Positions 9,001-59,308 of a stretch of 64,000 bases of DNA are shown piece after piece. Under the pieces are notes generated by a model. It did no database searches, was not told the origin of the DNA, and was given only the letters and a program-made list of their open reading frames with translations. The DNA comes from Bilabrum cf. latius (lineage: Eukaryota), in NCBI GenBank assembly GCA_965178125.1, contig OZ237752.1, forward strand, positions 62,001 to 126,000, given 5' to 3'. Numbering within the stretch: position 1 is the first letter of the stretch; each line of letters opens with the position of its first letter. Made by a program: the position numbers and the translations under genes.

Positions 9001-10523
9001 AGGAAGGAGGGGAGTCGCAGGCGGATGTGCGAGAAGGGCCGGGTCAGTCTAGAGGGGAGTAGTAGGAGCCAAGGAAGCTCGCATGGGATGCAGTGCATGC
9101 GGGGGAACAACAGAGTCCGGTGCTAGCGCATCTGGAGGCGAGCCTGGCACGCGCTGCTGGCTTGGAGCAGCCGGCCTCTGCCAAAGCCGCTGCCTCCGTA
9201 CCCTTCACCGACGAGCCAAAACAAGGCCGTCGCCGGCGGTAGAGCCTGTTCGTGTCTATGGTCAGCAAGCCTCCTCTCAGTGAAGCGCCTGGAGTCGAAG
9301 GTGCGGGTACACGTGCTGATGGCAGTGCGCTACCGGAGCAGACGGAGCTCGAGACGTTCTGTCTTGCCGGCAGCTCTCGCACCGGCAGCATCCTGCAGGC
9401 CGTGGGTGTGCCGCTGTCAGTTGTGCGCCTCGGCCTAGGGATGCGCATCCTCTCCGGTCTGATCGTCATTGGGTTCCTGGTGCACCTGACGCTGACAGAG
9501 GCCTCCTTCGGGCTGTTGACCTGCACCGACATCGAGCCTGACCTGGACCTGGCAGCCGAGGACCAGCTGGATGCAGCCGAGGACAGGTCTGGCCGCCAGC
9601 TGAGTCCCAGCGGGTCGGACGAGTGTCCGGCGGGCACGGAGAGTAGGCGGCTCATGCTGGACATGGATGTGTGCTGCCACAACCCCGCGGCTTTAAGGCT
9701 CATGTTCGGGGTTGGCATACCTGCCATCCTGCTGCTGGCCGTAGGCATCCCGCTGGCAGCGGGAGTGCGGCTGTGGCAGGTCCGCGAGTAGCTCGCGACT
9801 CCGGGCGTGCTGGCCACCCTAGGCTTCCTGATGGCGGGGTTCCGCCGCGATGCATACTACTGGGAAGTGGTTATCATGCTGAGGAAGCTGGCTGTGGTGG
9901 CCATCACGGTGCTGGCGGAGCCGTGGGGGGTGCGCGTGCAGACGTACTCGGCATTAGGTGTCATCTTTGCGGCCAGCTTGGTGCATTCCCTCAGTCAGCC
10001 GTATGTGGCCCCGGAGCTCAACACGCTGGAGCTGGTGGCACTGGTGGGCGCCTTCCTGACCTTCGAGGCCGGCCTCTTCCTGCACGACCCCAACTCGGGG
10101 GCAGCGACCATCACGGTGGCAACGTCAGTCGTATTTGTGGCGAACCTCGCTGTAATGATGTGGGGCATCTATGCCATACGAGGCAACTTGTTTAAGCGAG
10201 TGAAGGAGGTTGCCGCGAGGGTATTCAATATGTGTGGATGTGGGCAGGACCGGCAGGAGTAGGTGCAGACGAACTCCGAGAGCATGGAGAAGCGGCGGCG
10301 AGCGAAGCTGTCCAGGTCGGGGCCTGCAGGCGCGGGTGCGGGTGGAAGGGGCACGAGTGGTCCTACTTGTGCATCCGTCGATGTTGGAATGGGAGGCGGG
10401 GCACAGCAGAGCGGCCTCGCTGGCGAGCCAAAGGGTTTTGGAGGTGACTTGGGTGGCGATGCTGGGTGGAAGCGGATGCCGAGTGGCAATCACGCGGCAT
10501 AGGACGCCGCTGAGGAAACCTGA
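3..10523 (+). CDS. Very large surface/membrane protein (5'-truncated, >3500 aa with TAG=Gln): FG-GAP/integrin-alpha propeller repeats, several IPT/TIG domains, FN3-like and Cys-rich segments, C-terminal multi-pass TM domain
   Basis: ORF-track fragments 39..1055 through 10263..10502 share one frame and are separated only by TAG (18: 1053,1260,1644,3657,5325,6141,6309,6678,7185,7665,7755,8136,9060,9063,9240,9789,10260,10500). First TGA is 10521-10523. Motifs: GDLDGDGVVDMAVGA, VTSVTP/V.VGG..C, CEEGYTGLLCARCRPGY, SLDC, LGFLMAGFRRDAYYWEVVIMLRK. Confidence 0.88.
385..1610 (+). repeat. Six near-identical 207-bp (69-aa) coding tandem repeats of an FG-GAP/integrin-alpha propeller blade
   Basis: CATCAGAAGATATCAGCCACCCAGGGCGGCTTCACGGGG[C/T]AGCTGGAT recurs with period 207; the variable codon lies at 432, 639, 846, 1053, 1260 and 1467. 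Confidence 0.95.
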
Positions 10524-10774
10524 CGGCCTCAACTCGATCGCAGAAGGGGGGGGCCTGGCGGACCTGCGGCCGGACATGGTCGTGCAGCTGAGGCGTAGGC
10601 CAGAACAGCTGCCCCAGGACGGGCGACTACAATGGTTGCGCGTAGAATTTTGTACTGTAATTCACTTTTCGTAATTCGCAGCTAGATCTAGGCGCTTCTG
10701 CGCGGCACTCGCAGCTGCGGAACCAGAAAAAGATCTCATAATTTTCTCACAGATATTTGTGTACCACGTGCGGG

Positions 10775-13072
10775 ATGCGCTCCTTGGTTGCAGGCATCTG
10801 CATTGGTGTACTAATTGTCATCTCACCCGCCCATAGCTCCAAGATTCCAGTGTCGGCTGCCGTGGTAACGGATGCTTTCGGCATAGACTCTCTCGACCAA
10901 CCGGCAACCGCCCTCTTCGACGAGCAGTCCCTGGCTGGCGACCCGTTGCATGGCGCCGGGGGCAAGTGTAATACGTCTTGGAATCCTGGGTGGCAGAAGG
11001 ATTGGTACAAATACCCAACGCGGCCGCTGGCGATAGTCGACCTCGGGTAGGTTTGGCAGCTTTCGAACCTTTGCATGCAGCATACGTGGGGAAAACCCAT
11101 CCTGAACATCAGCTTGAGCAACGCCCCTGTGCCTAGTATCTCTGAGAGGGTGCAGTGGTTCCAGGTTGAGACCGGCCAGCCTGGGTTCCCCGTCGGCGAC
11201 CACAGGTGGGGCTGCGCGAACGCGACCTCCGGAGGCGGGATGCCCGCGGACCTCAGCGGGCGCTGGCTTCGTGTGGGTCTACCAACAACGACTGGCAGTG
11301 CGGTACTAGAGCTGGTCCTGTACGGGTCGCGCTCTTCGGAGGCTGCCCCAGCGATCTCGTCGTCCTCCACGCCGGCCCTCGGCCTCGCGCTGCCTCAGGC
11401 TGGGCCACCCCCACCGGCAGGCGGCTCGGAGGAGGCTGCAGCCTTTCCCCCCGTGGCCCTGTCCCAGCTGCTGGGAGTGAACGTCGTGGGCGCGGTCTCC
11501 TCGGTCGCCAATCTCTCCCTGCTGGCCCCCTACGGCGCCCCCGTGCGCATCTACTCGGACTGGGACTGGACCGAGCACGTGCAGGGGCAGTCCGCTTTCG
11601 AGCCCACCGCGGACACGGGCTTCATGTATGACGACTATCTTGCCGCGCTGGGGCCAGGGAACAACACTAACAAGGAGATGGCGGCGGGCCTGGGCCTGAA
11701 ACCGCACGTGGTGGTGCAGGGCACTGCAGGCTTCGTGCACGGAGGCAACAAGACCGAGGCCAAGTGGAAGGCCATGAACGCCTCGCTGTTCCCTGTGCCG
11801 GGGGCCTCCCAGGACCCCGCCAGCTACAAGGAACTGGCAGGGCACATGTTCCAGTGGGCCGCGCGGTACGGCTCCAACGCCCAGGTGGACAGGAGCCTGC
11901 TGCGGCTGGCACCGGGGCAGCCCCCTCTTGTCGGCTCCGGTCTTCAGCCATGGCTGGAGGTGCTCAACGAGCCGGACGGTTGGTGGGAGGGTCGCGAGGC
12001 GTACTACACCCCTCTTGAGTACGCTGCGGCTCTCTCGGCGTCCTACGACGGGCACGAGGGCCGGCTGGGCCCTGGGATGGGCATCAAGGCAGCTGACAGC
12101 GGGCTCAAGGTGGCGCAGGGGGGGCAAGCACAGCTGCCCGGCAACGGGACAGAGCTGCAGGCCCTGGAGGCGGCTTATCTCTGGGCGCAGGTGCATCGCA
12201 CTGACAAGAAGTTCCCAGCAGACGGCATCAACATGCACCACTACAGCACCAACACCACCAACGGATGGGACGGGCAGGGCATCCCCCCGGAGCAGGACGG
12301 GCTGCTGGCCCTGGCCCAATCCTTCGGGCAGTGGAGGGACAAGAGGGCCCCGCATGCGGAGCTATGGTGGTCAGAATACGGGTACGACACCAACGGGGGC
12401 CCACAGACCGCGCCCTCCCTGGGCCCCTTGTCCCGGGAGGAGGTGCAGGGGGCGTGGCTGGTGCGGACCGCCCTGGTGCTGGGAGCCTCGGGAGCCGTGC
12501 AGCGGGGGCACATGTACATGCTGGCGGATGTGAGCTCGCAGGGACATGGCAAGTACGCGACCTCCGGTCTGCTGACGGACAAGGCCAGCTTCTTCCAGCG
12601 CAAGGCGGGGTGGTACTACGTGAGCGCCTTCCACTGGTGGGTGGGTCACCTGGCCGTGGTGCAGCCGCAGCAGGGGGGAGGGCGAGAGGGGGGGCTGGTG
12701 CAGCAAGGGCAGGTCACGGTGGCGGTGCTGGCGCCCGCTGCCGGGCAGGGCGCGCGCCCAGGAAAGAAGAACGCGGGGGCAGGCTGTGCCGAGGGTTGGG
12801 TTGGCGCCCCCTGCGGCGGGGGCGGGGGCTCTGCTCCTCCCCCCCCCTCGGTGAGCGGAGGTCTGGCGGCGTGGCTGCCGACTGGGAGCGGAGCGAAGGC
12901 GCCCGGGTCCACCCTCTCGCTGCCCAAGGGAGCCCCGGGGGAGGGCTCCAGCGTCAAGGTGGTGCGGCTGCAGACGGGCCAGCCCCAGGGCGTGGTGACG
13001 AGTGCGACGGTGGGCAAGGGCGGCAGCGTGGAGCTGGACGTGGACGAGACCCCCCTGTTCGTGCTGTGGTGA
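10775..13072 (+). CDS. Secreted glycoside hydrolase-like protein (clan GH-A-type TIM barrel) with N-terminal F5/8C (discoidin/CBM32-like) module, ~765 aa
   Basis: ATG 10775 with signal peptide MRSLVAGICIGVLIVISPAHS. One in-frame TAG (11048) in 'IVDLG[Q]VWQLS'. Catalytic-like EVLNEPD and WWSEYGYD motifs. Ends TGA; no intron needed. Confidence 0.75.
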
Positions 13073-13254
13073 GCACCCGTCTGGTGTATTCACTGCTGAG
13101 AACGAGCTATTGCTGCTTGCTGCTGCGTTGCTGTCATGCTGTGCCGGTTGTTGAAACTGTGCATGGCTTGCAGTGCTGGCTACACTACGGAAACATTCGT
13201 TATCTTTGCAGAACACAAGCGCTCTCGAACGCGGCATCGCCGAGCCAAAGTACC

Positions 13255-13933
13255 TCAAAAATCAGGTATACCCGCTGACACTGAGTTGAGCTCTCTCGCC
13301 AGCTTCTCTCGCAACCTGTGTCCATCCCCCTGCGCGAACCAGTCTCCGGTCTTCTCATCCCAGAAGTACGCACACAGATCGCCGTTCTTCACGTTGGAGT
13401 ACACCTAAATCTGGGTTGGAGCATCGTCTGGCTTGTCTTTTATTAGAGCAACCACTCTGATGGAATCTGCATTACCCTTACCGAACATGATTCGCATCTG
13501 CGGGAAGCGAAACGAGATTGTGTAGAACGTCATCGAGCTTGCACCGCTCGTAGTGTGGTAGCTGGCCGCGAGACGCCACAAGACTCACGTCGAAATGTCC
13601 AAGTGTGTCAATTTTAAAGTCTGGGTTTGCTTCCTGCATGGTCTTTGTCCCCTCCTTTATCGTTCGAAACAGCTTGGCAATTTCCTCCTCCGGGGTGTGC
13701 TCGGGAATCGGCTCATAGAAGTGTTCCGCAACCATATTTGGCTGGAATGCCATAGGCTTCCTGTCCTTTCTCGTGTAGTATTTCCCCTTTGGAAGTCTTT
13801 TCTTCGTCTTGATGGGACCATCCCAAACGTGTCTGATCGCAACTAGCCGAAGCTGTGTTGCTGCGCTAGCTCTACGCCCTGCCGGAAGAAGTGAGCGCAA
13901 CAATGCTCTGGATGATGCTCGCACAGACTGCAT
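13255..13933 (-). CDS. Mitochondrial frataxin/CyaY-like protein, 2 exons (13933-13589, 13497-13255), ~195 aa
   Basis: Arg/Ser/Ala-rich presequence. Phase-0 intron GTGAGT...TTCCCGCAG (13588-13498). C-terminus TQI[Q]VYSNVKNGDLCAYFWDEKTGDWFAQGDGHRLREKLARELN resembles the frataxin QIWLSSP..G...Y.W...W...DG..L.E.L..EL pattern. TAG at 13405-13407; ends TGA. Confidence 0.6.
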
Positions 13934-14264
13934 TGTAATTTATGTAGGGTAAAAAGGAGATGTGTGTGATGCAGCCGGCAGCGGCTCGCAGTCGAAATGG
14001 TGATGCAGTGACGAGCGTCACCTAATTACACCACGAAACAGCAAAAGAAGCCATCAACATTCTGGACAATCCCGGCCCTTGCCCCTCCTGGCGTTCATCG
14101 CCAGAGCACGGCTTCCACCTCAGGGACTGGTTAGATTGCCAACCCGATCCATGATACAGCAAATGCAGCCTTTCATTGCAGGCATGTAGCGAGATGCCGG
14201 GAAAACGGAAGCTGCCTACCATACTGGAAGCACGCGCCTCCCCATTCAATGCATCGCTACTGTC

Positions 14265-15392
14265 AGGGGTGGATAGGGCTGGAGCCGGGCTTGAGGGGTG
14301 GATAGGGCTTGAGCCGGGCTTGAGGGGTGGATAGGGCTTGAGCCGGGCTTGAGGGGTGGATAGGGCTGGAGCCGGGCTTGAGGGGTGGATAGGGCTGGAG
14401 CCGGGCTTGAGGGGGTGGAGGTGGCTGGAGCCGGGCTTGAGGGGTGGATAGGGCTTGAGCCGGGCTTGAGGGGTGGATAGGGCTGGAGCCGGGCTTGAGG
14501 GGTGGGAGGTGGCTGGAGCCGGGCTTGAGGGGTGGAGGTGGCTTGGGCCGGGCTTGAGGGGTGGATAGGGCTTGAGCCGGGCTTGAGGGGTGGGAGGTGG
14601 CTTGAGCCGGGCTTGAGGGGTGGGAGGTGGCTGGAGCCGGGCTTGAGGGGTGGATAGGGCTTGAGACGGGCTTGAGGGGTGGGAGGTGGCTGGAGCCGGG
14701 CTTGAGGGGGTGGATAGGGCTTGAGCCGGGCTTGAGGGGTGGATAGGGCTTGAGCCGGGCTTGAGGGGTGGGAGGTGGCTTGAGCCGGGCTTGAGGGGTG
14801 AAGGTGGCTTGGGCCGGGCTTGAGGGGTGGGAGGTGGCTGGAGCCGGGCTTGAGGGGTGGATAGGGCTTGGGCCGGGCTTGAGGGGGTGGAGGTGGCTGG
14901 AGCCGGGCTTGAGGGGTGAAGGTGGCTTGAGCCGGGCTTGAGGGGTGGATATGGCTGGAGCCGGGCTTGAGGGGGTGGAGGTGGCTGGAGCCGGGCTTGA
15001 GGGGTGGAGGTGGCTTGAGCCGGGCTTGAGGGGTGGATAGGGCTGGAGCCGGGCTTGAGGGGTGGATAGGGCTTGAGCCGGGCTTGAGGGGTGGAGGTGG
15101 CTTGAGCCGGGCTTGAGGGGTGGGAGGTGGCTGGAGCCGGGCTTGAGGGGTGGATATGGCTGGAGCCGGGCTTGAGGGGGTGGAGGTGGCTGGAGCCGGG
15201 CTTGAGGGGTGGAGGTGGCTTGAGCCGGGCTTGAGGGGTGGATAGGGCTGGAGCCGGGCTTGAGGGGTGGATAGGGCTTGAGCCGGGCTTGAGGGGTGGA
15301 TAGGGCTGGAGCCGGGCTTGAGGGGGTGGAGGTGGCTGGAGCCGGGCTTGAGGGGTGGATAGGGCTTGGGCCGGGCTTGAGGGGGTGGATAG
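14265..15392. repeat. G-rich minisatellite, ~38 units of 29-30 bp, consensus GAGCCGGGCTTGAGGGG(G)TGG(ATAG/AGGT)GGCT(T/G)
   Basis: GAGCC recurs at 14282, 14311, 14340 and onward. Two main unit variants (ATAGGG and AGGTGG) are interspersed, with G-run length variants. Confidence 0.97.
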
Positions 15393-15955
15393 TACGGATA
15401 ACATACTGTAGCCGCCTGATGGGGCCAATGGGTGCACAGGAAATAGGATGCAGGTGCCTCGAAAATTGCTCACAGCGGCCCGCCCACGCTCTTCACCAAA
15501 CCCAGGCATCAATAACTGCAATTCGTGCAATTTCAGACCGCCATTAGTATAATTATAAATACATTTAGTGTGAGAGAGAAGATCATGCCGATTCATCGAG
15601 GAATGAAAGCATGAACGCTATCTGAAATATATCCTCCTATGCGACCTGCCGGGGCGAATTTCGTGAATCCCGTGCTCGGTGGCCGACAGCTTGAACTGCA
15701 CCCGCTGTATCTTCGTCAATAAGTACGTTGCAGACTTGAAATTTGCACACAATACTATTAATGAAGTAAATATTATATTACACTAGTTATTATTCTCTTT
15801 AATCATTTTCTATGGTTGGAACACGGCCCCTGAAAATAGGCCCAATCGGCGATTTTTATTCCGGTAATGAGCCCCCTGACGGAACCAAGCGCTCGCCAAA
15901 TCGAATTCGAGCGAGCACCTGCCTCACCCACTCCTGCTCCACAATAAGCGACAGC

Positions 15956-16420
15956 ATGCAGTCTTCAGTGTCAGCATCGCAAAGGAAAGTATTTACAGAC
16001 GCAGACACGCAGTATAGATCTGGTCGAGCGGAAGAAGCAAAGGTTCTGAGCGGCCTCGGAAAGGATGCTCTCGTTTCCTTGCGGGCTGAGCTCCGGGCAA
16101 CTGCAGCGAAGTACATCACCCAAACGACATCTGAGATTAAAGAATTAGTTGCAGAAGAGCTGTAGGAGGGCTCAAAAGCTCGCCATGAGCTAGGGAATTC
16201 GGTCAAATCGTGCGAGGAGGTTGCCAGCCGAGCAAAGCATTCGGTAAAGGCGAGCATCGGCCAGTTTCACGCAGAAGCGCAGGTGCGCTGCGACGCAGTG
16301 CTGAAGCGATCCGTGCAAAACGCAAGTACCAAGGTGTACATGCCTTGCTTGCAATTCATGACAGAGCACCAAGCAGCGGTCGCTGCGGCGTACCAAGCTC
16401 CTCGGCAGGTCGCTTCCTGA
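15956..16420 (+). CDS. Hypothetical helical/coiled-coil protein, ~154 aa
   Basis: ATG 15956; in-frame TAG at 16163 (VAEEL[Q]EGSK); the frame stays open to TGA 16418-16420. No domain recognised. Confidence 0.5.
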
Positions 16421-16599
16421 GATGTGGATGGATAAGCCTAGCCGTAAGCGATGGAATCTGCAAGACTCATGGACTTATTTTGTCTTGCAACCGGGTGACT
16501 GTTCTAGTAGATCTGTTGTGTTGCAATCTTGAGAAGGCTAGAAGCAAGTATCCGGAACCGCGCATTGCAACTGATGAATCCCCACTCTAACAGCAAAAT

Positions 16600-18841
16600 A
16601 TGCTACATTTGGGCGCTCTTGCAGGGTGCATATATGTATTGAGTGTTGTTGCGACGCTATCCACTCACATCGATGTGTAAGGCATCAAAATAGGCCTATT
16701 TGTCAGCCGTATCACGGCCCAGAGCTTGAATGCTGCCAGTGCCAAATTGGCAGCGCTCCCGTCTTGTACTGCAGAATCCATGTCCATATTGATGATTTAG
16801 GCTCAAGGATGCTTGGATACAAGAATCCCTAGGTGATTTCACCAACACTGGATCGCATGGCAACCGACGGGATCCGGCTGACGAATTACAACGCTTTTCA
16901 AGTTTGTGCCCCGACTAGAGTAAGAAACAGAGGAGAAGTATGACAATTTGTCTCGTAAATGCATGCTTGGTTGGTCAGTAGAGTCCGTAAGCGAAAATCC
17001 GTCGTTCCTTGGCCTCTGCAGGCCAGCGTGCTCACGGGACGCTACCCTTGGAGGCAGGGCGCCTACTACTGCGTCGGCGACAACTACGGCGTGTTCCCGC
17101 AGTTCAAAATGATCCCGGAGCACCTACAACCGCACGGGTATGCGACGGCCCACATCGGTAAATGGTGAGTGGTCAGGGGAGGCGTCGCTCGGAAAGCACG
17201 AGGCGCTTGGACGTTCGCGCTCAGCAGGCTGCGGTACCGCGTCAAGCGTGCTGGCCCTGCACTCTCCGACCTGATTATCGCAGGCATGCTGGCTACTTGC
17301 GGAGGGAGTACACTCCTGCGTACCGTGGGTTCAACCGCTCGCTGGGCTACTACCAGGCCGGACTCGGGGACTACTGGATCCACAACGCGACTAACTTTGC
17401 CATTCACTGCCCCAATGCCACCACGGACCTATTCAATTCCACGGGGAAAGTCCTGGGCAGCGCCAGGGGCTAGAACCACACGTACAGCATGGACGTCTTC
17501 CGCAGAGAGGCCGTGTCATTCGTGCGGGACACCCCGTCGGAGCAGCCCCTGTACCTATACTTCGCCACGGAGAACATCCACGACCCGCTCAACGTGGACA
17601 TGAAGTACGTGGACATGTATCCCCAAGTGGAGCTGGACACCTTCAAGGTCGCGTACGGCATGGTCACGGCCCTTGATGATGCGGTGAAGAGGCTCATGGA
17701 CCAGGTGCGGGTGGCGGGCAGGGGCAACCGCACCGTATGGATCGTGACGAGTGACGTGAGTGAAACCTGTGATGAGTGCGTGCTAGGAAATTTCCTGCTG
17801 TTTTCCGTCCCTGGCGCGTGTCACCTCCCATACCACCCCCTGCTGCTCCTATCCCACTCGTCCTGGTGCTCGCCACCGACCCACCGCTCAGCAGCACCTG
17901 CCCCTCCCTCCCTACTTACTTTCACCACGCCCACAGAACGGAGGCCCCTTGGACCAGTGAGCTGCACTGTGCCATGCAATGTCCCGTATCACGTTACATT
18001 GGTTCATCAGTCTCGGCTCCTTCTCTCTTCCTCGCTCCCCACCAACCCATCCCCCCGCAGCAACTACAACATCGGGAGGGGAGGCAAGCACACGTACTGG
18101 CGCGGTGGTCTGGAGGTAGAGGCCTTCGTCTACTCGGACTCAACGGACATTATCCCGGAGGCCATGCGGGGGGCCCGCTGGGGCGGACTGGCACACGCAT
18201 CTGACCTCCTCCCTACCATCGTCGAGGGCATTGCGGGGGAACAGCTGCAGCCCGAGCCAGAGGCACCCTTCCCCCTAGATGGCGTCAACCTCTGGAGCGC
18301 CCTCCGAAAGGGGGAGCCCTCCCCTCGGCAGGAGGTCATCCACAGCGTCAGCAACTCTCACTACAACTACACGGTCAACCACCACATCAGCGACGTCATC
18401 ACCAGGGGCGGCTTCAAGCTCATGAGGGTGCACCAGGGAGACAACAGGACAATCCCCGTGAGGCCCATGGCACAGTCCAACGTGAGCTTCGGGCTCTCCG
18501 GTGGGTGGACCCAGGCCAGCGAGGGGTTCCCCGAAAACGCCCTCGTAGGCGGGTTGCCTACCCCGCGAGTGTATCCCCAGTGCCAGGAGAGGCCCTGCCT
18601 ATACCACCTGGCGACGGACCCCGACGAGGCCCACGATTTGGGTGGGGACCCGCAGTACACCGACGTGGTGCGTCAGCTGACTGGCATCCTAGACGGCGAG
18701 AAGGAGAAGGCCATGCCGCTGGCCGCGCCCTACTCGGATGCGGACTTCCGCGGCGTGGTCAAGCAGCTGTGCGAGGTGGCGGGCCGCACGGGGGGGTTCA
18801 TCCAGCCGGTCGACTACTTCGAAGGGGAGCACTCAAACTGA
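16600..18841 (+). CDS. Secreted arylsulfatase (ARSB-like, formylglycine-dependent S1 family), 6 exons: 16600-16676, 16775-16919, 17022-17164, 17284-17755, 17937-17956, 18061-18841; ~545 aa
   Basis: All introns are GT-AG with consistent phases. Splicing rebuilds IDDLG, CAPTR-ASVLTGRY, GKWH, RGF and SDNGG..RGGKH. In-frame TAGs at 16830 (KNP[Q]VISPTLD) and 17471 (ARG[Q]NHTYS). Ends TGA. Confidence 0.9.
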
Positions 18842-19382: not shown

Positions 19383-22300
19383 ATGTCGCGCTTCTCTGCA
19401 TTACTTTCGACGCTTGCTGCACTGATCGGACTCGCGCATGCCGGCATCATTCGAGAAATCCACAGCGTGTCGCCGGACCATGGAGGTTTCGGAGGTAAGA
19501 GCACCGCATTTGATTGACGTTTGTGCAGTAATTATGTGCGCTTGACATGCCGATGATTATCGTGCGGCCATTAACCAAGACGAGTCCCAGCTCAGTCGGA
19601 AACCGATCCACTCGTCTCCACTTCGGTCGCAGGCGGCACTCGCGTTACCATCCGAGGGGTCGGGTTCAGCACGGATCTCATAAATGGAAATAATTAGGTG
19701 TTCATCGGGGAGGAAGGCGAGTTCGAGTGCCACGTGATCCCGGAAGAGTGCAGCCCCCGCAAGATCGTCTGCGAAACATCGCCCAAGCCGGATCGGGTGA
19801 GCACGGGCCGGCTGCCCGTGCGAGTCATCGTGGACGTGCTGCACAGCATCACGAGGACCTCGGGCTTCTACTACACGAGTCGCGTCACTCCGTACGTGAG
19901 CCGCCCCCTCGAGCACGAAACGGCCCTGCGCGTGGGCGAGGCCCTGGTCCTCAGGGGCAGCCTGCGCATGCCCTCCGCCACTCGCACAGGACATTTTCGC
20001 GTGGCTGGACTCAGGAGGCAGCTGCAGGGGCACCCAGACACCCCGCTGGTCAACGCAGACGACTTCAGTCTGCAGGACGCGAACGGGGCGGTGGACCTGC
20101 AGCCTGCTCTCGCTCTCGTGCTGCAGCCCGCGCCTGCCACGGGCACTGGGGGCAATCGCACTGCGTCGGCTGTTTCAGCCGCCCTGCGCCGGGAGTACAC
20201 GCTGCTGTCTTCCGCAGACAGAGAGTCCATGCGACGCCCCGGCGAGCTCGGGAGTCTTGAATCCAGCGGTGCGCCGGGCGGGGGCAGCATCGTGGCATCT
20301 GCGGAGGCAGCCATGGGCGCTGCAGAAGACGAGGACAGCGGGAGACTGACGGTGGGCCGAGACCGATACCGCGGCACCATTCCGCTGGATGCCCGCAGCG
20401 GGGTGTGGAACCTGTCTGTGGTGGCGGGGCACGCGGGAGGTCGGGCGCTGCATGCCTCTGGTGGACTGCAGACCAACGCCGACCAGAGAGTGGGTGAGGC
20501 AGGCATCAGGTTCGAGGTGGGCGTGTTTCCGTCGCTTCAATGGCAGGACGGGGACATTTCAGTGGATGCGATCCGTCTTGCTGCCCCTGAACAGCAGGGC
20601 GAGGGCAACAACGAAGGGCAGCCCGCAGCCCAGCTGCCAATCAATCTGCTGCGCATGATCACCGCAGGTCAGGAAGTGGGTGAGGCCCGCCCGCAGCCTG
20701 TGTCCTGGCCATGGTTCTGGGGCCTGTCTGCCCCTCGCTCCGTGGAGGGCGGGGGCCAGCGCACGCTCTGGGGTTCTGGCCTTGACCCTGTGGCGGCAGA
20801 TGGCAGTCGGAGGTCACGCCAGGCGGCCATGCTGACGACCGACCTAACCTCGATCTGGGCGTGGACAGGAGAGCCCCCTTCCTTCACGGGGGACGGACTG
20901 GTCCCCGACGTGAACACGAGGGTGTCCTTCTCCGCCATCGAGGCGCTCAGGCAGTGGAGGTCGCAGGAGCAGGCCAGGCGGGCAGTGGCGCTGGCTCACC
21001 TCCCGGCCCCCATCGCCCTCAGGGCCAGGGAACAAGATCGCTTGGAATGGTGGTCGGGAGCGTCGCTGGGTGCGCGCAGGCTTTGCAAAATCGTGTTTGC
21101 GGAACCGGAAGCCGCCTTGTGCCGCGACGGTAGCCAGGCAGCATCCGCTGCGGCGCATCTGCTGCTGCGGGCCGTGTGGGAGGGCGCTCACGCTGCCACT
21201 GTCGCGGGGGCGCTGGTGTCTCCGCCGGAGCAGCTGCTTCACACCGAGCCTGGGAGTATCAACGGCACTGTGCCCGAGCAGCAGGCGAGCTGGGTGTCCC
21301 CGCCGCAGTGGGCACTCGAGGAGGCGGGGCTGGCCGGGAGCGGGCAGGCAATCCCCAGCGGCGACGGTGACGAAGTGCCTCCCCCTCGTGCTGTGTCTGC
21401 AGCCATTAGTGGATCGTGGTACGACGCAAGCGTTGCGCTGTAGTTGCCCCGGTGGGGTGTGTGGGACCTGTACGTGGGACCAAGACAGGCGCTCCGGCCT
21501 CACCAGAACGTGACGGTGCTGCCGCCCGAGGGGATGCCACTCACAGCGCGGATTGGGAGCTCGGTGGGCGCAGCATCGATCGATGCGGGGCAGGGGAAGG
21601 GACAGGGGCTGGCATGGGTGCCTCTGGGCACACTGGACCGCCCTGGTCCTGCACTTGATGATAGTGGAGCGGTGGTGGGCGGCGAAGATGAAGGCCATAC
21701 CACCACCAGTGAAGTGACCGTGAATCTGCAGCCCCCACCCAGCTCCCAGGCCCGCTTGCTGGCGGTATGGCGGGGCCCAGATGCATGGTCTGCCTCGCGC
21801 GTGCCCGTCCCTCCTGCCTTTGTCGATGCCAACGGCACCGCTCCCATCGCCCTAAATGCCACGGAGTGCACTGGCGAGCAGGAGGCCCTGGGAGGGACCG
21901 GTCACCCCATGGACCGACCGCTCGCTGCCGCTGCTCGCACTGCCAGGGTGCAGGCAGCCCTGGGTACCGATTGGAACACCTCCCTGGCCCTGTCTTCCGC
22001 CGGAAGGATCTGCCTGGACCCTCAGGCGATCAATTACGCGGGGGAGGGGCTAGAGCATCTCCTAGCGCGATCGGACGTGCTCAGGGCTGCGCGCTCCCTG
22101 CTGCAACTGGACCTGGATCTGGCCAACGGAACTGCCAGGAGCGGAGCGGCCGCTGGCGCGCAGGGGCGAATCGGTGCCAGCGCGCTTGCGGCCGCTGGTC
22201 AAAGCCAGTGGTCCGGTGTGCTCTCTGGTCCGTCGGTCCGCGCCGCAGTGCACAGGGCCTATGTGTCTGGCCTGGCGAGGACTCCTCTGTTCGAAGGGGC

Positions 22301-49018: not shown

Positions 49019-50761
49019 TCACTGCAGCCCAGCAGAGATGGCCATGCACACCCCCGGCATGGTCACCGCGCAGCCTCCCGACGAGCAGCTCACGCTCGCC
49101 CTGCGCGGGGACAGCGGCCCGCTCGTCCACGGCACGGGCGCATCCTTGCTCGGCAGCGGGGCCCATCCGCCCTCGTCCTCGGCCGAGTACAGCCAGGCGT
49201 CCGCCTGGGCGGGGTCGAAGGCAGGCAGCACGGCGGTCAGCGTCTCGGCGCACCGGTTGATGATCGCGAATCGGGGGGAGGTCCTTGCCCCCGGGTCCGA
49301 GGCGAAGAGAGAGGCCTGCAGGCAGGGCAGCCCCGTCTGGTCCTTGATCGCGAAGCCGATCGTGGGGTGCTCGCTGCCGGACTGCTCCAGCGGGATGAAG
49401 TACGAGGCCGGGGGCGGCGGGGATGTTGCCTAAGTCGGTGGCGATGTCGATGACTGGTGTGATGACCCGCCTGCTGCCATTTGCCCGTTCGGCTTGGTCG
49501 CAAACGAAGACCAGGGGGCCGGTCTAGCCGCCCGCGTGAGGTGGGCAAACACCTGGCCCACGCCGCTCACCTCGGGGCGGGCGTCGGGGCCCAGGGAGGC
49601 GTTGAAGCGAAGCACGCCAGAGTTGTGGTCCCAGTTCACGGCCGTGTCTTCGGCCAGCGCGTGCATGTGCATGGAGACGTACCGGCTCCACTTGACCGAA
49701 GACGAGGAAGAAGAAGCTGCAGCAGCAGAGGGCTCCCCGGTGGCACTGCGCGCTGCCTCCCTGCGGCGGGCAGGCGTGGGCGTGTCCGTGACGTGCCTGG
49801 CTGCCTCCAGTATCCTGTCCGCCTAAAAGATGCCGTGGATGGCTCCATATGGGAATAGCAGGGGACCTGATTTGCCTCCTGTTGACCCGGCGTAGTTGAA
49901 CTCGGTCTGGGCCACGAGCGTGTCCTTGCCGAAGCATGCGTCCACGCCTTGCATGGCCAGTTGCACGCTGGCACTGGACCACGCGGCCACCACCGTGTTC
50001 CACTGGGAAGGTGGAAACTGGGTGCTGACAGTGTGGTTGCCAATCGTGTAGTCGTGCAGAGTGACGCCGTCGTAGGATTCTTTAAAGGCGCTGAGTTGGC
50101 TGTTCCAGCTGCCACCGCACGAACTATTGCGGATCGGCGCCTGGTACGCGACTGCCATCACCAGGGCGGCGGGAAACAGCTTGCGGGCCCCGGCTGCAAT
50201 CGGCTTGGCGGCTTCCATGTACGTGGACGAGTTCGGAAAACGCCATGTATCGTGCTGGGAATAGAACTCATTGCCCAGCTCGAATATTTCCACATCGGAC
50301 GGCGAGCTGACCTGCTCTGCCAGCGACTGCATGTCTGCCAAAGTCTAGGTCCGATTGAACGTGAGCATGTTTACGTCGAACACAGGCGTGCTTGTCGTTA
50401 CTCGACCCAGCGCGCTGCTCTGCATGACAGCATGCGGAGTGAACGTCCCCTGTGGAAATGAAGAGACGTTCTACGCGTACTGGCAGCAACTGAAATTGCA
50501 ATTTGGAACGTAGTTTCCCTGGCTCATCGACCAGTAGTTGGCGACCGTGCCACCAGGGTAGCGAACTGACCCGACCCCAAGAGCCTCAACCCCTTCTATG
50601 AGCGCAGAGTTATTGTACGGGATTTGAATGATGGGGCCCAGGACCGTGTTATAGCTGAACAGCCGAGCATCAGCCGGAACAGCGAAGCTCTTGGGCCGTA
50701 GCACTACTTCTGCGGTACTCAGTGCGACCACTGCATGATAAACCAAGAGAATTTGAATCAT
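49019..50761 (-). CDS. Secreted glycoside hydrolase, clan GH-A (GH51/GH44/GH79-like), ~580 aa
   Basis: Signal peptide; RYPGGTVANYW, FELGNEFY (acid/base) and AQTEFN (nucleophile) motifs. Four in-frame TAGs (50471,50345,49823,49430); ends TGA. Confidence 0.8.
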
Positions 50762-51129: not shown

Positions 51130-54100
51130 TCACCCACGCACGGCCCCCCTAGCCCTCGGCCCCGTGTCCAACCTCGCACGAACCCTCGGCCCGCCATTGG
51201 CATCCGGAATCCCCATGGCACCACCATGCACTGCACGTGCACCTGGACCTCCCCGCCGCAGCGCCCCACCTGCGGACGAAGCCCGAGGCCTCGCCATGGG
51301 CCCTCCTCCTCGCCCAACCCTACTGCCCCCACCCGCCTCCGCCATCCCTGTCATCCCGACCCCTTCACTGCCCTGCCCTGCTGCGTCGAGGCCTGACAAC
51401 CACAGGGGAGAGGACGCGGGCACCATCGACATGCGAGCACGTGCCCGGGGCCCGCTGCCTCCAGTGCCCCTGCGGACACTCGCACCCGCCCCCGCCCCTG
51501 CACCGCGATCCCGCCCGGGTGCAGCCACCGTGTGCGAGCGAACCTTCCTCACCGGCGGCTGCACGGGCCCACCGATCATCGCCGCCTCCCCGCTGCCAGA
51601 GTCTGCGTGGTTGGCACTGCTGCTGCTGCTGCTGCTGCTGCCTGCCGCAACGGCTCCCGATGCCTTCTCCTGCTCCTGCTTGCCTTCCTCTTTGGCCACG
51701 TCATCCGCTACCTTGTCCGCCAGTTTGCCCAGCATGCCCATCCTCTTCATCATGAGCAGCTTGACCCACACGGCAGACCGCAGCATCTTGAGTCTTCTTC
51801 GCGCGTGGAAGCGCCTCAGCTGGCTCGCAGCCTCCCTTAGGTGGTTGTCATCCAGCCCCCCCCTGTCCAGCTCGAACCAGGGGTGCCTCAGCGCCTCCTC
51901 CGCTGTGAGTCGCCTGGAGGGCCTCACCACCAGTAGCCTCTTAACCAGGTCCTTGGCCTCCGAGGAGACCCTCGACCACTCCCGCGAGGGAAACGTGTAC
52001 GTCCCCAGGCGGACCTTGGCGAACATTCGCTCCATGGAGTCGTCCTCGAAGGGAAGGTACCCGCACAGCAACACGTACAGGATCACGCCCACCGACCACA
52101 TGTCCACAGGCATGCCGTAGCCGCCTTTGGGTTTACCCTAGTCCCCGCCCGGCGCGCCCGGTAGCCTCGAAGACGATGACGATGCAGCAGCAGTGGAGGC
52201 AGCCCCCTCCAGTATCTCCGGGGCCATGTATCCCGCGCTGCCAACCATGGCCCTGGCTTTCTTGCCCTTGAGCTGGGTAGCAAACCCGAAGTCTGCCACG
52301 CGGATGGCAGCGGCCGGCTCTTTGCCGCTGCTCCCCTCGGTCGGGGCCTCCGCAAGCAGCAAGTTCTCGGGCTTCAGGTCCCTGTGCACGACGCCCAGCC
52401 TGTGGCAGTGCGCCACCGCGTCCAGCAGAGCCATCGCCACCTGCCTAGCCTCCCCCTCGCTGTACCCCTCTCGCTTCACGATCGCGTCGAAGAGCTCACC
52501 GCCCTTGCAGAGCTCCGTCACCAGCACATATTTATCAGGGTCCGTGTCGAAGAAAGCCACCAGGCGCACGATGTGGGGGTGCCTCAGGAACCGCTGCGTC
52601 TGCACTTCTTGCAGCAGCGACGCCCGGTCTTCTGCCTTCATGGCCGCCCGCTGCATCACCTTGGCGGCAAACTGGCGACCCGTCCGGCGGTGCGTGCACC
52701 TGTGCACTACGGAGAACCCGCCCCGGCCGATCTCGGGTCCGAGCACGAACACGGATTCGAACCTGGGAGCCGAAGGTCCTTGTTCTTGGGAGCCGGCGGG
52801 AGGACGATGCACCGGCGCTCTCGCTCTCGAGTCCCTTGTTCCCCTCGCGCCTCTCATGCGAGAGCCACGGTGCTTCCCTCTGTCATCAACGGCAGGTGCA
52901 GAAGAGGCGACCTCCCCCCCGCGCGGTGTGAGGGGGCTGCTGGTGGGCGGCGCGTGTGCCTCCCTGGTGGAGGAGGTGGTGGAGGCCATCTGGGCATGTC
53001 GCCCCCACGGCTGCGCTGGGGGAGATTCGGTCGCACCATCGTGTAGTGCACCCACTCGCATGCGGGGGGCACTGCCTGCCCGCAGCATGCGCCCTACGGA
53101 TGTACTGCCATGCAATGCACCCGCGTCTTCCACCGTGGTCGCCCTGCTCCTCGTCTGCGACGCGGGGGGTAGCCTGAGCCGAGCCCCCCTCGACCCACCC
53201 TCCTATTCTTCCTCCTCATCTTCTGTCCACTCCTCCTCCTCCTCCTCCACCTTCTCGCCGATCCCCTCCAGCCCACCACTACCGCGAGAGGTAGACTAGT
53301 CAGCCGGCATGCGGCTGCCAGAGCCGGACAACAACCCCCTCCCGCGGCCCCATCCCGCGTGAAACGACTGCACGGCTCGCATCCTCGCACTCGTCACACC
53401 ATTTCCCTTGCTCTCCAGGTCCTCCCCCCTGCCCCCGCCCGCCCTGTCCATGGCCCGCCGCACCGACCGCAGTGCGGCCCTCACCTCACCATCGCCCTCC
53501 ACCGCCGGTCGCAGCAGGGCCAGCTCCGAGGCCGCCCGCTCCAGCCGCCGCCTTGCTGCAGTCAGAGCCGCTGGCTCCAGGGAACAGCGGCGCAGCGCCG
53601 CATCCCGCGCGTCCTTCCCCTCCATCGAAGAGCCGGCGGGTCCTCCCGCGAGCTGCCGTGGCCTCTGCCTCTGCCAGCCGCCCCTGGATGAGGGGGAGGG
53701 TGCAGGGGAGGGTGACCCGACGGCGCTGAGGCGCTAGCCCGTGCGGTGGGCGTCGCGACGGAGAGCGCGCTGCAGCTCCTCGCACGCGTCGAGCACCTGC
53801 TCCGGGGAAACCGCCCGCCCCACAGAGTCGGCGCACTGCGCTAGCGTGCGGCCGAGCCTGGCGGCGTCGGCGGCGCGAAGCTCTGCCGACCGCGAGGCGG
53901 TCGGGTGCACCGCATTGCGGCGCCCCGCACCCTGCCCAGGACCAAAACCGCGAACACCCCGCCCCGGCGAGCCCGACGCACTCGTCACACCGTCCATGGC
54001 CATGGGGTTGGTCCGCAGTGGGACCGTGCCGTGGCCGAAGGCCGATAGCCCCAGTCCGCCGCTCCCGCCAACTCCATCAGCAGCGGACGAAGGAGGCGCC

Positions 54101-54595
54101 GCCATTACTTTGTGGTGAGCGTCGGCCACCGCCGTCTCGATCGCACGCACCCACTCGATCGCGATTCGTTCGCCGGCACCCGAGGCGGGAGGTGCATCCG
54201 GTACGACGTGCAGGTCCCGCTGGCCCGGCACAGTCGCAATTATAAATCCAGGCTGGCCTCTAAGCTCCTCTGGACGGGCTCCAGACACCTAATCGAGCGG
54301 CAGCCGGCCGCGGCTCCGTGCTGAAACTGGGTCGTAGGTATAGATCAGCTCAGTTGTGGTGAGCATGAGCCATCGGCGCTACCAAGTCTGCGAATCCGAG
54401 TATATAGTGTATATTCACGCACTTCTTTACGTCACGTGGGGGCTAAATACGGAAACTAGGGCAGCCTGGCAGTCTGCAACACATCCAACCACTGGTGGGC
54501 CTCACTCGCATCCAGCCTCTGCTCTGCTTCTGCATCCAACCCGAGCGCAGCACCTTTCCGATCGGTTTTCCATCCATATATTCTATTCCTTCCAT
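51130..54595 (-). CDS. PH-domain + CAMK-group (CaMKI-like) Ser/Thr kinase, exons 54595-54506 and 54387-51130, ~1115 aa
   Basis: PH: VLRSGWMQKQSRGWMR|TW[Q]RRWLML...EWVRAIE. Kinase: GRGGFSVV, AAK, HRDLKPEN, DFG, YMAPE, DMWSVGVILY, followed by a basic CaM-binding-like helix. Six TAGs (54379,54289,53734,53296,53203,52138); ends TGA. Confidence 0.88.
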
Positions 54596-54878: not shown

Positions 54879-55767
54879 ATGCGCAGAGTAGCTAGGGCAG
54901 GTAGCCCACTTGCTGTTGCCGCTGCCTGCTCGGCAGGGGTTCCGCTCTTGAGATGCATTCACAGCGGCACCACCCAGGATCGAGGTTCTTGGAAATTCAG
55001 GTCGTTGCACCTAGCAGAGTACAATTGCTGGGCAGATGCCAAGCTCATTGATGCAATTAAACATGAAGCAGGTATAGATATTGACCGGGATGCAGGTGAG
55101 TGAGCACAACGCGAGAAATGCCCTCGCTCTAAAGTGCAACTTCAACTGTAGGGGGCTTGCCTGTCATCACATACTCGCAGGGCTGGCATTTGCTAGCATA
55201 CGAGGGACTATCAACCATATTGTGCTAGCGGATCTAGTTTGGCTGCTACGGATGACAGGGTAGCAAAGCATTTCTTTGGATTTGCCAGCCTCACACACAC
55301 TACATTTCGATCTCCGCGAAGACCTGCCGTGCTTGTGGAACGGACCGCGAGAAGGTGAGAGTGTACGATGTATGCAGGAGTTTAACATCTACACGTAACC
55401 TGCTGATGCGCTTGCGTCGGCATGAGACTGCAATCCTGGTGATGAGTGCGGCATGATGAGAGCTTCCCGTCTCGCAGCTTGGACGGACGCTGTCCCCGGA
55501 GGGTTCGAAGGCACGTGCAGCGCACTGCAGCAGAGCAGCCGCTTGTTGCTCGAGCTGTGCGAATCGAGGCCAGACGCCTGGTTCGATGAGCCCTTCCTCT
55601 ACGCCAACTCGCGAGGCGACCAGCTGGAGCACGTGCCCGGGCCAGTGCTCGCCCACGTGTTCAACCACGGCACGCACCACCGGGGACAGGTCACCGCGGT
55701 GCTCACGGCAGAGGGTGCCCCTGCACCCGCTCTGGATTTGCTGTACTTTCAGAAACCGGAGGCGTGA
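54879..55767 (+). CDS. DinB/YfiT-like metal-binding protein with possible mitochondrial presequence; exons 54879-55095, 55181-55354, 55478-55767; ~226 aa
   Basis: YNCWADAKL, GLAFASIRGTINHIVLADLVW, HVFNHGTHHRGQV and LDLLYF motifs. Two phase-1 GT-AG introns; TAG at 55261; ends TGA. Confidence 0.82.
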
Positions 55768-56327
55768 CCGCGCCTGTGTGGCGCTCGGTGTAGTGCCGCG
55801 CATCCGACGGAGTCCCGCGCAGATGTACTGGTCTCCTATTTCGCATATTTGCCTAGCATCTTTCTGCTGCTCGCGTGGGTGCACAGTCGGCGATTGTTTT
55901 CTCCCAGTGCCTGTTCCATCTGTACTCTATGTGCTGCATTAGATCCGGGTGAGGCACTGGATTCGGATCGGATCCTTAGCAGGGGCTGCCGTGCCGCTGG
56001 ATGTTGTGGATGTCTAGATTCGACTTGGTGCCACCGCGAAGGAGAAAGCGCCACGAACTATTTTTTTACTGCAATAGTTATAATCTATCAATACCACAAA
56101 CATGCGCATAAACAAACAAATACAAACATCCGAGCCGCACCACGGACAGACCCAGCTCGCTCCCCTTTCCCTTCCCTGCTCCCAGCCTGCACCACCACAG
56201 CTTGCACCCGCGCAGGACGGGCGTCCCTGGCCAACTACAAAATCAACAGTTCATTTAATCCGCCAGGACGCCCGAATCTCCGCTCGCAAGCTGAGTGATC
56301 CAGCCACCAACCACCGCTGGGCATTCA

Positions 56328-59308
56328 TCACCCCAGCATGCCACCGAGCCCGAACGACGAGCCCAGCATGCCAGCATCAGTCCCATCCCCCGCCGCGCCT
56401 CCCCCGGTTCCCCCCACACCCACACCCACGCCCCCCCCGAACCCCAGGCCCCCGCTCGAGCCCCCCTCAACGCTCCCACCCCCGCTGGACAAGGCCTCAA
56501 GCCCGCTCTCGTGCCCCAGCCCAAACATGCCCCCAGACCCAGACCCAGACCCCCCCTCCCCGGCAGGAGCCAGGGGGGACACAAGGCCAGAGCCCAGCCC
56601 ACCGAACCCTCCGCCCCACTCCGTCCCTGTCCCCGCGCCTGCCACTCCACCGCGCGACATGGGCGCTGCGGGTGCGGTGGACGCAGACGGCATCCCCCCA
56701 GAAACCCCGCCTCCCATGCCGCCGAGCACGGGCGTTGACCGGTGGCTCCCAGTCCCAGCCACACCCGCACTCATGCCGGCCCCCGGATCCGCCCCGACAC
56801 CTGCCGAGCTCCACTGCGAGGCCCCTGAGCTGCTGTGCCCCAGCCCACCGCTGCCCCACCCGCCGTCGTAGCCCTGTCCCTGCCCGGGTCCGTATCCATA
56901 GGACTGGCCCACAGCGCCCGCCATGCCGTGAGCAGAGGGCACGGGCCCGGTGCTAGAACCCATCTGCCCCTGGTGGTGCCCATGCCCCTGCATCTGCCCC
57001 TGGCCTGCCTGCATCTGGGCCCGCATGGCTTCCATCTGGGCCTGCATGCTCTGGATCTGGGCCTACAGAGCCGTGGTCTGCTCCTGCCCATGCCCATGCC
57101 CATGCCCATGCGAGAGACCCCCAGAACCAGCGCCATCGCCAGCCGCACCGTGCCCGTACCCAGTGCCCGCACCGCCCACCATCGGTGATGCCACGGGAGC
57201 ACCACCTCCGGTGAAGTGGCCGCCATAGAATGGAACCGACATTCCCATGCCCATCGGCATCATCGGCATGCCCATCGGCATCCCCATGCCCATGCCAACG
57301 CCGACACCCGCTCCAGGCTGCATGCCCATCATCTGCGAGACCCCTGCGCCCCCGAGCTGGGGAACACCAGCCACAGGCCCTTCCCCGTCCACGCCCGCAT
57401 GCACGCGCGGCAGCGGGGGGTTTCCGACCCTGAAATCGCCGTACGAGGCCACACCAGACACCGGTCCGGCAGCTCCACGACCCCCGCCCGGTGGCACGCG
57501 GCCCAGCGGGCTGCCCGCGATGGTCCCCTGCACGTGACCTCCGGGCCCAGGGCGCTGGATGCGCGGGGGGGGCACCCCCTGGGGACCCCCGCCCCCCTGT
57601 TGGGGACCCAGCTCGCCCCTGGGTTTCCCCGGTTGCATCTTCAACACGTCCAGCGCCGCCTCTGGCTGCGGATCCTCCTGCCCCGTGGCCCTGAGGTACG
57701 CCCCCCTGAGCCTGGCCATGAACTGGCGGTATGACTCGGCTGCCAGCAGGGAGGAGTAGGACTGGGGGAAGGAGGCGGGGTCCTGCGAGACGAGGTACTT
57801 GAGGTGCATCGCCTGCTGACGGTCCTTGCCCCCCGTCGTGGCCTCACTCGTCACACCAGCGCTGGCCAGCTGCAGAAGGCAGGCGGCCGTCCCATCCCAC
57901 GTGCTTGTCTTTGCTCCCTCGTCGTCATTTTTATCAACAACAACATCATCACCGTGGCGGACGCCCCCCTCCCCCTCGCCCTCGCCCTTGCTCTCGCCCA
58001 GACCGGCAGCGCGCTCGTCATGAGCTGCACCGCCGCCGCTGCGGGCGGTGGTGCTGCTGCTGGCTCCTGCCGAGGACGCAGGGGAAGGCCCGGGCCCGGG
58101 CGCGGCCCTCGTGCTCGTGGTCGTGGTCCCTACCACGCTGAGGGCCCCGGCGCCGCGCATTCCGGTCGGTTCCGCTGCACCGGGGATCGTCGAGGCAGGG
58201 GATGGCGCCGCGCCGTGTTCCGCACCCACAGACCGGCCATGCATCTGGCCCCCACGGTACCCTGCGGGGCCGCCGACCCCGGCAGCGCCCCTGCCTCTGC
58301 CTCTGCCACCGCCACCACCGCCACCACCGCCACGCCCCCCCCTGCCGCCCCCCCGGCGCACAGGCACGCCCATCCTGGCGAGCCCGCCCCTGCCTGCGCC
58401 GCGCCCGCGGGAGGTGGTCGTGCTGGACACTTCCACCGGTGATTCCTGCGCGCCACGCGCCGCCGCGTACGGGTCGGGGGCGCCGCGCACATCGGCGGAA
58501 CCTGCAGTTCCATCGGATCGGAACGTGCTGCCGGGCAGGGGCGGTTTCCTGGAGGCGGCAGGGCCCATCCCACCGGAAATTGGGTCCTCTGGCAGCTCGT
58601 CGGGGTTTCCCGAGAACGGCAGGAGCTCGGAATCGCCGTGCGCGAATGTGCAGCGGACGGAGTGCGGGCAGCTGGTGCCACCGCTACGCAACCACCATTT
58701 GCAGATGCGAGTCTTGTACCTGCAGTGGCAAGTTTAAATATACTATTCATACATTGCGGCACATGCATGCAAGCAACCAGCTGCAGCAGCAATGCACGGT
58801 CCACCACTACCAGCGGAGGCAGCAAGGCCGGACGGCGTACATTTCATTCGCTGCCTGTCTCACCTGGGGTTGGTAGCCGGTGAAAATCCTGGAGTGTTCC
58901 CCGCTTTATCTTCTCTTAATTCGTTTGTTCCGTGGGCAAAGAGGCACTCCTAGTACGGACAAGAGCCCTCCAGCCAATACAGGCATACCTGCGCAGCAGG
59001 TCAAGGTCAGCGACAAGGCTAGACAAGCTGTCCACAAATCTTGAATAGAACAGGCCTTAAAGTCGACTTGAGAGGCATACCACCAGCTATGCTAATATCA
59101 ATGAAGAGTTATGCTAATTGGTAGGCCACCAGGCACGAGCGCTGGTGGGGGGTCGCTCAGTTTCGATTGCACACAGCCGTGGCCTACCATCCAAACGACC
59201 CAAGTGGGAAGCACAGTGTTCCAGCAGGGGTGGCAACAATGGACAAATACCGTTTCTTACCTTGGTTTTGTACCGACTTTGTCCCTGCCGTTGTGGTTGG
59301 CCTCTCAT
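56328..59308 (-). CDS. Tandem CCCH zinc-finger RNA-binding protein (TTP/Tis11-like) with long Gly/Met/Gln-rich tail; exons 59308-59261, 58988-58864, 58719-56328; ~854 aa
   Basis: RYKTK|VCLYWLEGSCPY[Q]ECLFAHG and RYKTRICKWW...CPHSVRCTFAHG. TAGs at 58950 and 57063; ends TGA TGA. Confidence 0.85.

Follow-up and report, generated by a model that had tools for sequence, protein, structure and literature searches.

The genes on a stretch of Bilabrum cf. latius contig OZ237752.1 (assembly GCA_965178125.1) probably follow a variant of the nuclear code, with UAG as an ordinary glutamine (Gln) codon, UGA as the working stop, and UAA retained as a rarely used stop. The stretch comprises 64,000 nucleotides (positions 62,001 to 126,000 of the forward strand) and is referred to below as the window, with coordinates counted from its first nucleotide. 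Within it, TAG occurs in frame and behaves like a Gln codon, TAA and TGA are absent from the reading frames, and TGA is found at every gene end seen. Translated with the standard code, the window breaks up into many medium-sized open reading frames (ORFs); with TAG taken as a sense codon, a few very long ORFs are obtained. Two of these, at 3..10523 (3,506 codons) and 19575..44129 (8,184 codons), are open only when TAG is read.

In-frame codons were counted in nine coding stretches (17,909 codons in all) that had been accepted on length, coding score or codon statistics, domains or signal peptides. They contain 60 TAG, no TAA and no TGA, along with 556 CAG and 98 CAA, and TAG accounts for 8.4% of the Gln codons. 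Pfam-supported FG-GAP/TIG, kinase and sulfatase genes are among the TAG-bearing stretches. A preliminary description, made from the letters of this DNA alone, had reported no in-frame TAA and 68 TAG. The first statement was reproduced over the 17,909 codons; the second is close to our own count, its excess coming from 5′ leaders, small exons that we did not count, and an ORF at 13713-15923 (minus strand) with six TAG. This proline-rich ORF of 737 codons is spurious, being made by a 29-bp minisatellite, and was kept out of the evidence on the code.

The TAG codon very probably encodes Gln, to judge from repeat copies within one gene and from a close relative of another. The first giant gene carries tandem FG-GAP repeats of 207 bp; at one column, four of the six copies have CAG and two have TAG, and the surrounding 12 codons are identical. 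(The repeats themselves, at 393-1600, suggest recent amplification inside the gene or ongoing homogenisation.) For the fibrocystin-L-like giant gene, a search for shorter proteins retrieved a close relative in the form of six ORF fragments (P0138, P0140, P0142, P0144, P0146 and P0150) on one contig of 32,010 bp, with identities of 86-95% in the search table and 89-95% by local BLASTP. The residues of this relative at 10 of the gene's 19 TAGs are Q (seven), E (two) and W (one), and each of these differences is one base change away from TAG. Using substitution frequencies drawn from the same 5,124 aligned columns, after dropping alignments below 85% identity and the overlapping P0141, we obtained log10 likelihoods for the 10 TAG columns of -7.4 (Gln), -17.2 (Glu), -19.4 (Lys), -27.2 (Trp) and -27.9 (Leu). 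Gln is ahead of Glu by about 10 log10 units, and Ser, not being among the six best of the 20 residues, lies below -27.9. The preliminary description had simply assumed that TAG means Gln; the assumption holds in the repeat copies, the relative and the likelihoods, with one awkward frataxin-like site that is taken up below.

For five of the relative's fragments, the codon following the last residue corresponds to a TAG of the window (residues 3169, 3380, 3628 and 3805, the end at 3628 being extrapolated by three residues) or to a CAG (residue 4882). From these ends, four of the window's TAGs appear to be matched by in-frame stops in the relative, and a fifth such stop appears to lie opposite a CAG of the window. 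Such frequent interchange of CAG and TAG fits a UAG that is nearly synonymous with CAG, and the turnover between the two genomes seems to be fast and uneven. Along window positions 28239-44129 (P0005 residues 2888-8184), the last 3,302 codons of the relative are stop-free, and the window has six TAGs over those codons. Two adjacent TAGs at 9060-9065 imply efficient decoding, not leaky readthrough.

The same alternation of TAG and CAG, between repeat copies and between relatives, would also arise if the DNA followed the standard code and TAG were removed in the RNA by U-to-C editing to CAG, or if the TAGs were errors or pseudogene lesions. We find this hardly credible: the in-frame counts of TAG, TAA and TGA (60, 0 and 0) show a selectivity not expected of random lesions or of U-to-C editing in general, and four TAG positions appear to be conserved as stops in the relative. 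Nuclear U-to-C editing of this sort is not known to us, which also counts against editing.

Further relatives of the first giant gene in the database (P0155, P0161, P0212, P0202 and others) include many very short fragments, 66-210 amino acids long and 50-87% identical, and the last aligned residue of P0161 lies one codon before a window TAG. Judging from these fragments, other members of the lineage may also have in-frame stops and have been fragmented by standard-code gene callers.

TAA, unlike TAG, is kept out of the reading frames as strictly as TGA. With TAA and TAG used in the same proportion as CAA and CAG (A share 0.150), the nine stretches should contain 10.6 TAA, and the probability of finding none, P(0), is 5.9e-5. 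TAA is not missing from the DNA, since the other two sense-strand frames of the same genes contain 67 TAA, 170 TAG and 552 TGA; coding spans have 2.5 TAA per kb, and the remaining DNA of the window has 13.1. When all stop triplets were scanned for coding-like sequence over 40 codons on either side, 27 TAG, one TAA and no TGA passed, and the lone TAA is antisense to the gene at 49019-50761. As a check on circularity, the ORFs were delimited again with TGA alone. Five of them (G2, the sulfatase, the 8,184-codon giant, the transmembrane protein and the zf-CCCH protein) were extended, solely at their 5′ ends, and the TAAs gained in this way lie in 5′ leaders or GT..AG introns; in the zf-CCCH gene, for example, TAA 58734-58736 falls in such an intron. 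The TAA count is therefore not an artefact of ORFs delimited by TAA.

UAA thus does not serve as a regular sense codon in the window, which argues against the code of NCBI table 6, in which both UAA and UAG (UAR) encode Gln. The comparison with CAA:CAG usage had been proposed in the preliminary description. Could an ordinary table 6 code nevertheless have produced TAA too rarely to be met in 18,000 codons, through GC bias or a scarce tRNA(UUA)? UGA is the sole stop seen, as in table 6 organisms, and codons ending in A are disfavoured: the GC content at third codon positions (GC3) of the genes is 0.63-0.82, the share of NNA among A/G-ending pairs is 0.07-0.22, and the lowest pair in the nine-stretch set is TTR, at 0.074. 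UAR = Gln has also arisen many times, with at least 13 coordinated UAR changes according to PMC5304391. The deficit of TAA makes this explanation improbable all the same, all the more as 98 CAA were at hand as mutational sources and yet gave no TAA, while changes from CAG to TAG are frequent in the comparison with the relative (seven sites).

At the other end of the genes, TGA was verified in frame at all 11 stops listed in the preliminary description (positions in Table 1), and the stop at 56328 (minus strand) is doubled, TGA TGA. Three of the 11 belong to genes that are small or weakly supported (13255-13584, minus strand; 15812-16420 and 55426-55767, plus strand). UGA is the working terminator. 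The earlier claim that it is the only one stands for the stops seen, 11 of 11, and cannot be generalised from 11 stops in DNA of 65% GC. A low share of TAA at gene ends is expected in GC-rich sequence, in line with the mammalian lineages analysed in PMC9129041, in which a higher GC3 goes with fewer TAA and more TGA stops; the 65% GC may be the cause of the UGA-only stop profile.

Two TAA-terminated ORFs with some coding score, 15856-16266 (minus strand, opposite the weakly supported ORF 15812-16420) and 49434-49826 (plus strand), were considered as genes and rejected as antisense shadows, the codon model for the antisense of a gene fitting them at least as well as the coding model. The plus-strand frame 48942-50624, which spans 49434-49826 and contains two TAA, is better described by the antisense model by 22 bits, and on the minus strand the coding model beats the antisense model by 51 bits for 49019-50761. 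The protein encoded by the latter had no homologue in PDB or NCBIfam searches, and its strand was settled by these codon statistics.

The position of the gene ends also bears on an ambiguous, context-dependent UAG, read as Gln inside genes and as stop near some 3′ ends, with some of the TGA "stops" lying in 3′ untranslated regions. Stop/sense codes of this kind exist in ciliates and in Blastocrithidia, and the last TAG of the first giant ORF is just six codons ahead of its TGA. We consider such a code very improbable for the window, in that the relative's ORF ends at the same position as the TGA of the 8,184-codon gene, the TAGs are spread along whole genes and include the two adjacent ones, and in no gene was the coding signal seen to end at a TAG well before the TGA, although this last point was not put to a rigorous test.

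What UAA does is a separate matter. As the preliminary description had stated, the window cannot decide between a rare stop and an unused codon: with TAA at none of 9-11 gene ends (nine in well-supported genes), the upper 95% bound on its share is 0.28-0.24. UAA might be unassigned or nearly extinct, UAG being Gln, UGA the sole stop, and UAA having been removed by GC pressure in a manner resembling codon capture. This we hold to be possible but unlikely. TAA is absent from the 17,909 in-frame codons and from the gene ends alike, GC3 is high, and the density of TAA is five times lower in coding spans than elsewhere. On the other hand, the sample of eleven stops is too small, being still compatible with TAA at up to 24-28% of gene ends, and TAA occurs freely in introns and leaders. 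To our knowledge, eRF1 recognises UAA and UGA through shared features in every known eukaryote, which also counts against an unassigned UAA. UAA has been kept as a stop in Iotanema, the rhizarian exLh and phyllopharyngean ciliates (PMC5304391 and PMC11687900). In its fullest form, this explanation would have a photosynthetic stramenopile with its own independent UAG-to-Gln change, in which UAA is near-extinct under strong GC pressure, leaving 62 sense codons, one stop (UGA) and one effectively unassigned codon; we regard that scenario as doubtful. It would stand between the standard code and table 6 as an intermediate resembling codon capture; as far as could be found, no nuclear genome of this sort has been documented. 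On the whole, the observations of the preliminary description are confirmed, and its interpretation is supported in part.

For the code that we favour, with UAG as Gln and UAA as a rarely used stop, the mechanism would be as follows. UAA would still be recognised by the release factor, as in the UAG-only codes described (PMC5304391 and PMC11687900), and would seldom be chosen as the stop of a gene because GC pressure favours UGA. A tRNA-Gln(CUA), derived from tRNA-Gln(CUG) by one mutation, would pair with UAG but not with UAA, and the organism would have no tRNA(UUA). Section 9 of PMC5304391 argues that no anticodon other than CUA can distinguish UAG from UAA. In the N-domain of eRF1, recognition of UAG would have been lost, and that of UAA and UGA kept; changes in eRF1 have been described for Iotanema (T32G, proposed for the loss of UAG) and for the rhizarian in the same paper.

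Nuclear codes that separate UAG from UAA are rare but are already a known kind. According to PMC5304391, UAG alone is reassigned in Iotanema spirale (Fornicata; Gln) and in the rhizarian exLh (Leu), with UAA as the dominant stop of both. PMC11687900 adds two ciliates, Hartmannula sinica and Trochilia petrani (both Gln), as well as three phyllopharyngean metagenome-assembled genomes from TARA (Leu), and cites Protocruzia tuzeti (UAG = Gln) and Scotinosphaera (UAG = Ser). In the reassigned phyllopharyngeans treated there, UAA makes up 86.9-98.3% of stops (91.9% in H. sinica; the value for T. petrani was obtained by difference from 13.1% UGA), and the TAG share of Gln codons in H. sinica and T. 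petrani is 18.5-31.8%.

The window is like the UAG-only Gln code (Iotanema, or NCBI table 15 type) in that in-frame UAG is Gln, UAA is never in frame, and the two UAR codons are separated; UAG occurs in functional genes, the TAG columns are mostly Gln in a relative, and UAA is not a sense codon. The mechanism expected for such a code, tRNA-Gln(CUA) with an altered eRF1, is also the one inferred for the window. It differs from the Iotanema and ciliate cases in its 65% GC and in best matches that are ochrophyte-like, and its TAG share of 8.4% compares with the higher values just given for the two ciliates. Leu-type exLh and TARA genomes and the Ser-type Scotinosphaera are alike in having UAG reassigned alone with UAA retained, and differ in the amino acid, the log10 likelihood for Leu being -27.9 against -7.4 for Gln, with Ser lower still. 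Table 6, which is found in many ciliates, hexamitin diplomonads, ulvophycean green algae, Amoeboaphelidium and Streblomastix, shares with the window UAG = Gln and UGA as the sole stop seen but needs in-frame UAA as Gln, and the window has 60 TAG and no TAA, with about 10.6 expected. In the ambiguous codes of the Condylostoma/Blastocrithidia type, the stops also occur in frame, and the window has neither TGA nor TAA there. Oligohymenophorea sp. PL0344 reportedly uses UGA as its sole stop. In that organism, UAA is Lys and UAG is Glu (PMC10553269), UAA thus being a sense codon, whereas it is absent from the reading frames of the window.

Several results weigh against UAG being simply Gln with UAA kept as a stop. 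The first concern the meaning of TAG. At 13405-13407 (minus strand), a TAG stands at a conserved Trp column in a borderline match to Pfam Frataxin_Cyay, which scores 21.4 bits with W, 14.9 with Q and 13.4 with E (cut-off 21.3). A PDB search with this exon gave no frataxin, the borderline Pfam match being the only one. The protein may have Gln at a usually conserved Trp position; otherwise the match is spurious, or TAG is not always decoded as Gln. In the alignment with the relative, W likewise stands at one of the 10 TAGs, and the relative's stop codons were deduced from the ends of protein fragments, not from its DNA. More distant homologues do not help. A part of the first giant gene, 1,071 residues long, had 323 matches in a HMMER search, and of the best 150, 26 were at least 40% identical; at eight TAG columns of this gene, homologues of 40-87% identity have Q at one of 27 residues, the columns being variable and lending no support. 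Seven fibrocystin-L homologues of about 30% identity reached only two of the 19 TAG columns, mostly with gaps. In the Pfam TIG region, the scores with TAG translated as Q, E, W, L, S, Y or K were 48.5-52.9 bits, with W and L lowest and Q, E, S and K not separated, and a piece of the sulfatase had no Pfam match under any of the seven readings.

The remaining results concern UAA. With the A share of GTR, the lowest A/G-ending pair in the two giant ORFs (0.067), the probability of finding no TAA is only 0.016, which lessens the case against table 6 but even then leaves the absence improbable under that code. UAA was seen as a stop at none of the 9-11 gene ends. Iotanema, exLh and the phyllopharyngeans prefer UAA as their stop, and the window is the opposite, with UGA at 11 of 11 and no UAA. 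Finally, no tRNA gene was found in the window by ARAGORN, an Rfam scan of the whole window gave no match, and no eRF1 gene lies within the 64 kb, so the tRNA and eRF1 changes set out above are steps that we infer.

The window looks like nuclear DNA of an ochrophyte-like (photosynthetic) stramenopile and is treated as such here, on the basis of kinase matches, eukaryotic products and GT..AG introns. The best named matches of the kinase are from ochrophytes (Tribonema minus, Ectocarpus, Aureococcus and other brown algae) at 36-44% identity. A closer database fragment, P0020, is 79% identical and covers a TAG only within a variable insert, which is of no help for the meaning of the codon. The eukaryotic products include an FG-GAP/TIG membrane protein, a fibrocystin-L-like protein with G8 domains, a sulfatase, a kinase with a PH domain and CaMK-like catalytic part, a zf-CCCH protein and a DinB-family protein. 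Short GT..AG introns were found in the sulfatase and zf-CCCH genes and at the 5′ end of the 8,184-codon giant gene. Those at 58737-58890 and 19450-19574 (approximate limits) are about 120-150 nt long and have TGA and TAA inside, and in the zf-CCCH gene a GTGAG donor and a CTGCAG acceptor are visible. No introns could be recognised in the giant exons of 10.5 and 24.5 kb. The spliceosomal-type introns and the eukaryotic best matches rule out a bacterial or phage origin, which was also considered. When an unaltered piece of the window was searched against a protein atlas, all matches were bacterial "hypothetical" clusters, which carry no information on function or taxonomy.

Across the 64 kb, GC content ranges from 58 to 69%, with an overall figure of 65%. 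It is only 58-62% at 12001-20000 and 44001-52000, where small genes and intergenic DNA lie, and 67-69% in the 24.5-kb exon. The sign of the GC skew flips at about 44 kb, where gene orientation switches. The features of the window are listed in Table 1.

Table 1. Genes, exons and repeats of the 64-kb window, with in-frame TAG and TAA and terminal TGA codons (coordinates from the first nucleotide of the window).
Feature	Position	Strand	Remarks
Giant FG-GAP/TIG membrane protein gene	3..10523	+	5′ end outside the window; 3,506 codons, 18 in-frame TAG, 0 TAA; TGA at 10521
Tandem 207-bp (69-codon) FG-GAP repeats	393..1600	+	5.8 copies, 91% identity; one column CAG (4) or TAG (2), flanks identical
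Adjacent in-frame TAG TAG	9060..9065	+	inside the first giant ORF (3..10523)
Secreted protein gene	10775..13072	+	signal peptide; 1 in-frame TAG; TGA at 13070
Last exon of small, weakly frataxin-like gene	13255..13584	-	TAG 13405-13407 at the conserved Trp column of Pfam Frataxin; TGA at 13255
29-bp minisatellite	14265..15391	.	38 copies, 89% matches; holds several minus-strand frames open
Weakly supported ORF	15812..16420	+	202 codons; 1 TAG; TGA at 16418
Sulfatase gene with short introns	16785..18841	+	5′ limit approximate; TAG in exons; TGA at 18839
Fibrocystin-L-like giant gene	19383..44129	+	exon 1 with signal peptide; intron holding TGA, TGA, TAA; then one 8,184-codon exon
8,184-codon exon of fibrocystin-L-like gene	19575..44129	+	19 TAG, 0 TAA; TGA at 44127
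Multi-pass membrane protein gene	44403..48620	-	1,405 codons, 9 TAG, 0 TAA; TGA at 44403
Secreted protein gene	49019..50761	-	580 codons, 4 TAG; TGA at 49019
PH-domain and CaMK-like protein kinase gene	51130..54414	-	more exons upstream; 6 TAG; TGA at 51130
DinB-family gene, last exon	55426..55767	+	clear DinB-family match; TGA at 55765
zf-CCCH protein gene, last large exon	56325..58733	-	1 TAG; doubled TGA TGA (56328-56330, 56325-56327)
Low-complexity protein gene	60641..64000	+	runs off the window; 2 TAG in 1,119 counted codons, 0 TAA

We found no nuclear stop-codon reassignment in ochrophytes or other stramenopiles in the open literature (subscription journals and a 2025 review were outside the scope of the search). 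The discussion of PMC11687900 (December 2024) lists as lineages separating UAG from UAA the rhizarian, Iotanema, Scotinosphaera, Protocruzia and some phyllopharyngean ciliates, and no stramenopile. Within the open literature, the lineage described here appears to be new for UAG-only reassignment, and its occurrence in an ochrophyte-like alga would mean that the change had also arisen independently in a major group of algae. It is also the mirror image of those UAG-only cases whose stop usage has been described, being GC-rich and using UGA instead of UAA as its stop, and it thereby tests the idea that heavy use as the main terminator protects UAA from reassignment. As TAG and CAG interchange at many sites at about 9% protein divergence from the relative, codon capture could be studied in progress in this lineage. 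In practice, gene callers set to the standard code will break up the genes of this organism wherever a TAG occurs; the database proteins of the relative, fragmentary as they are, illustrate this.

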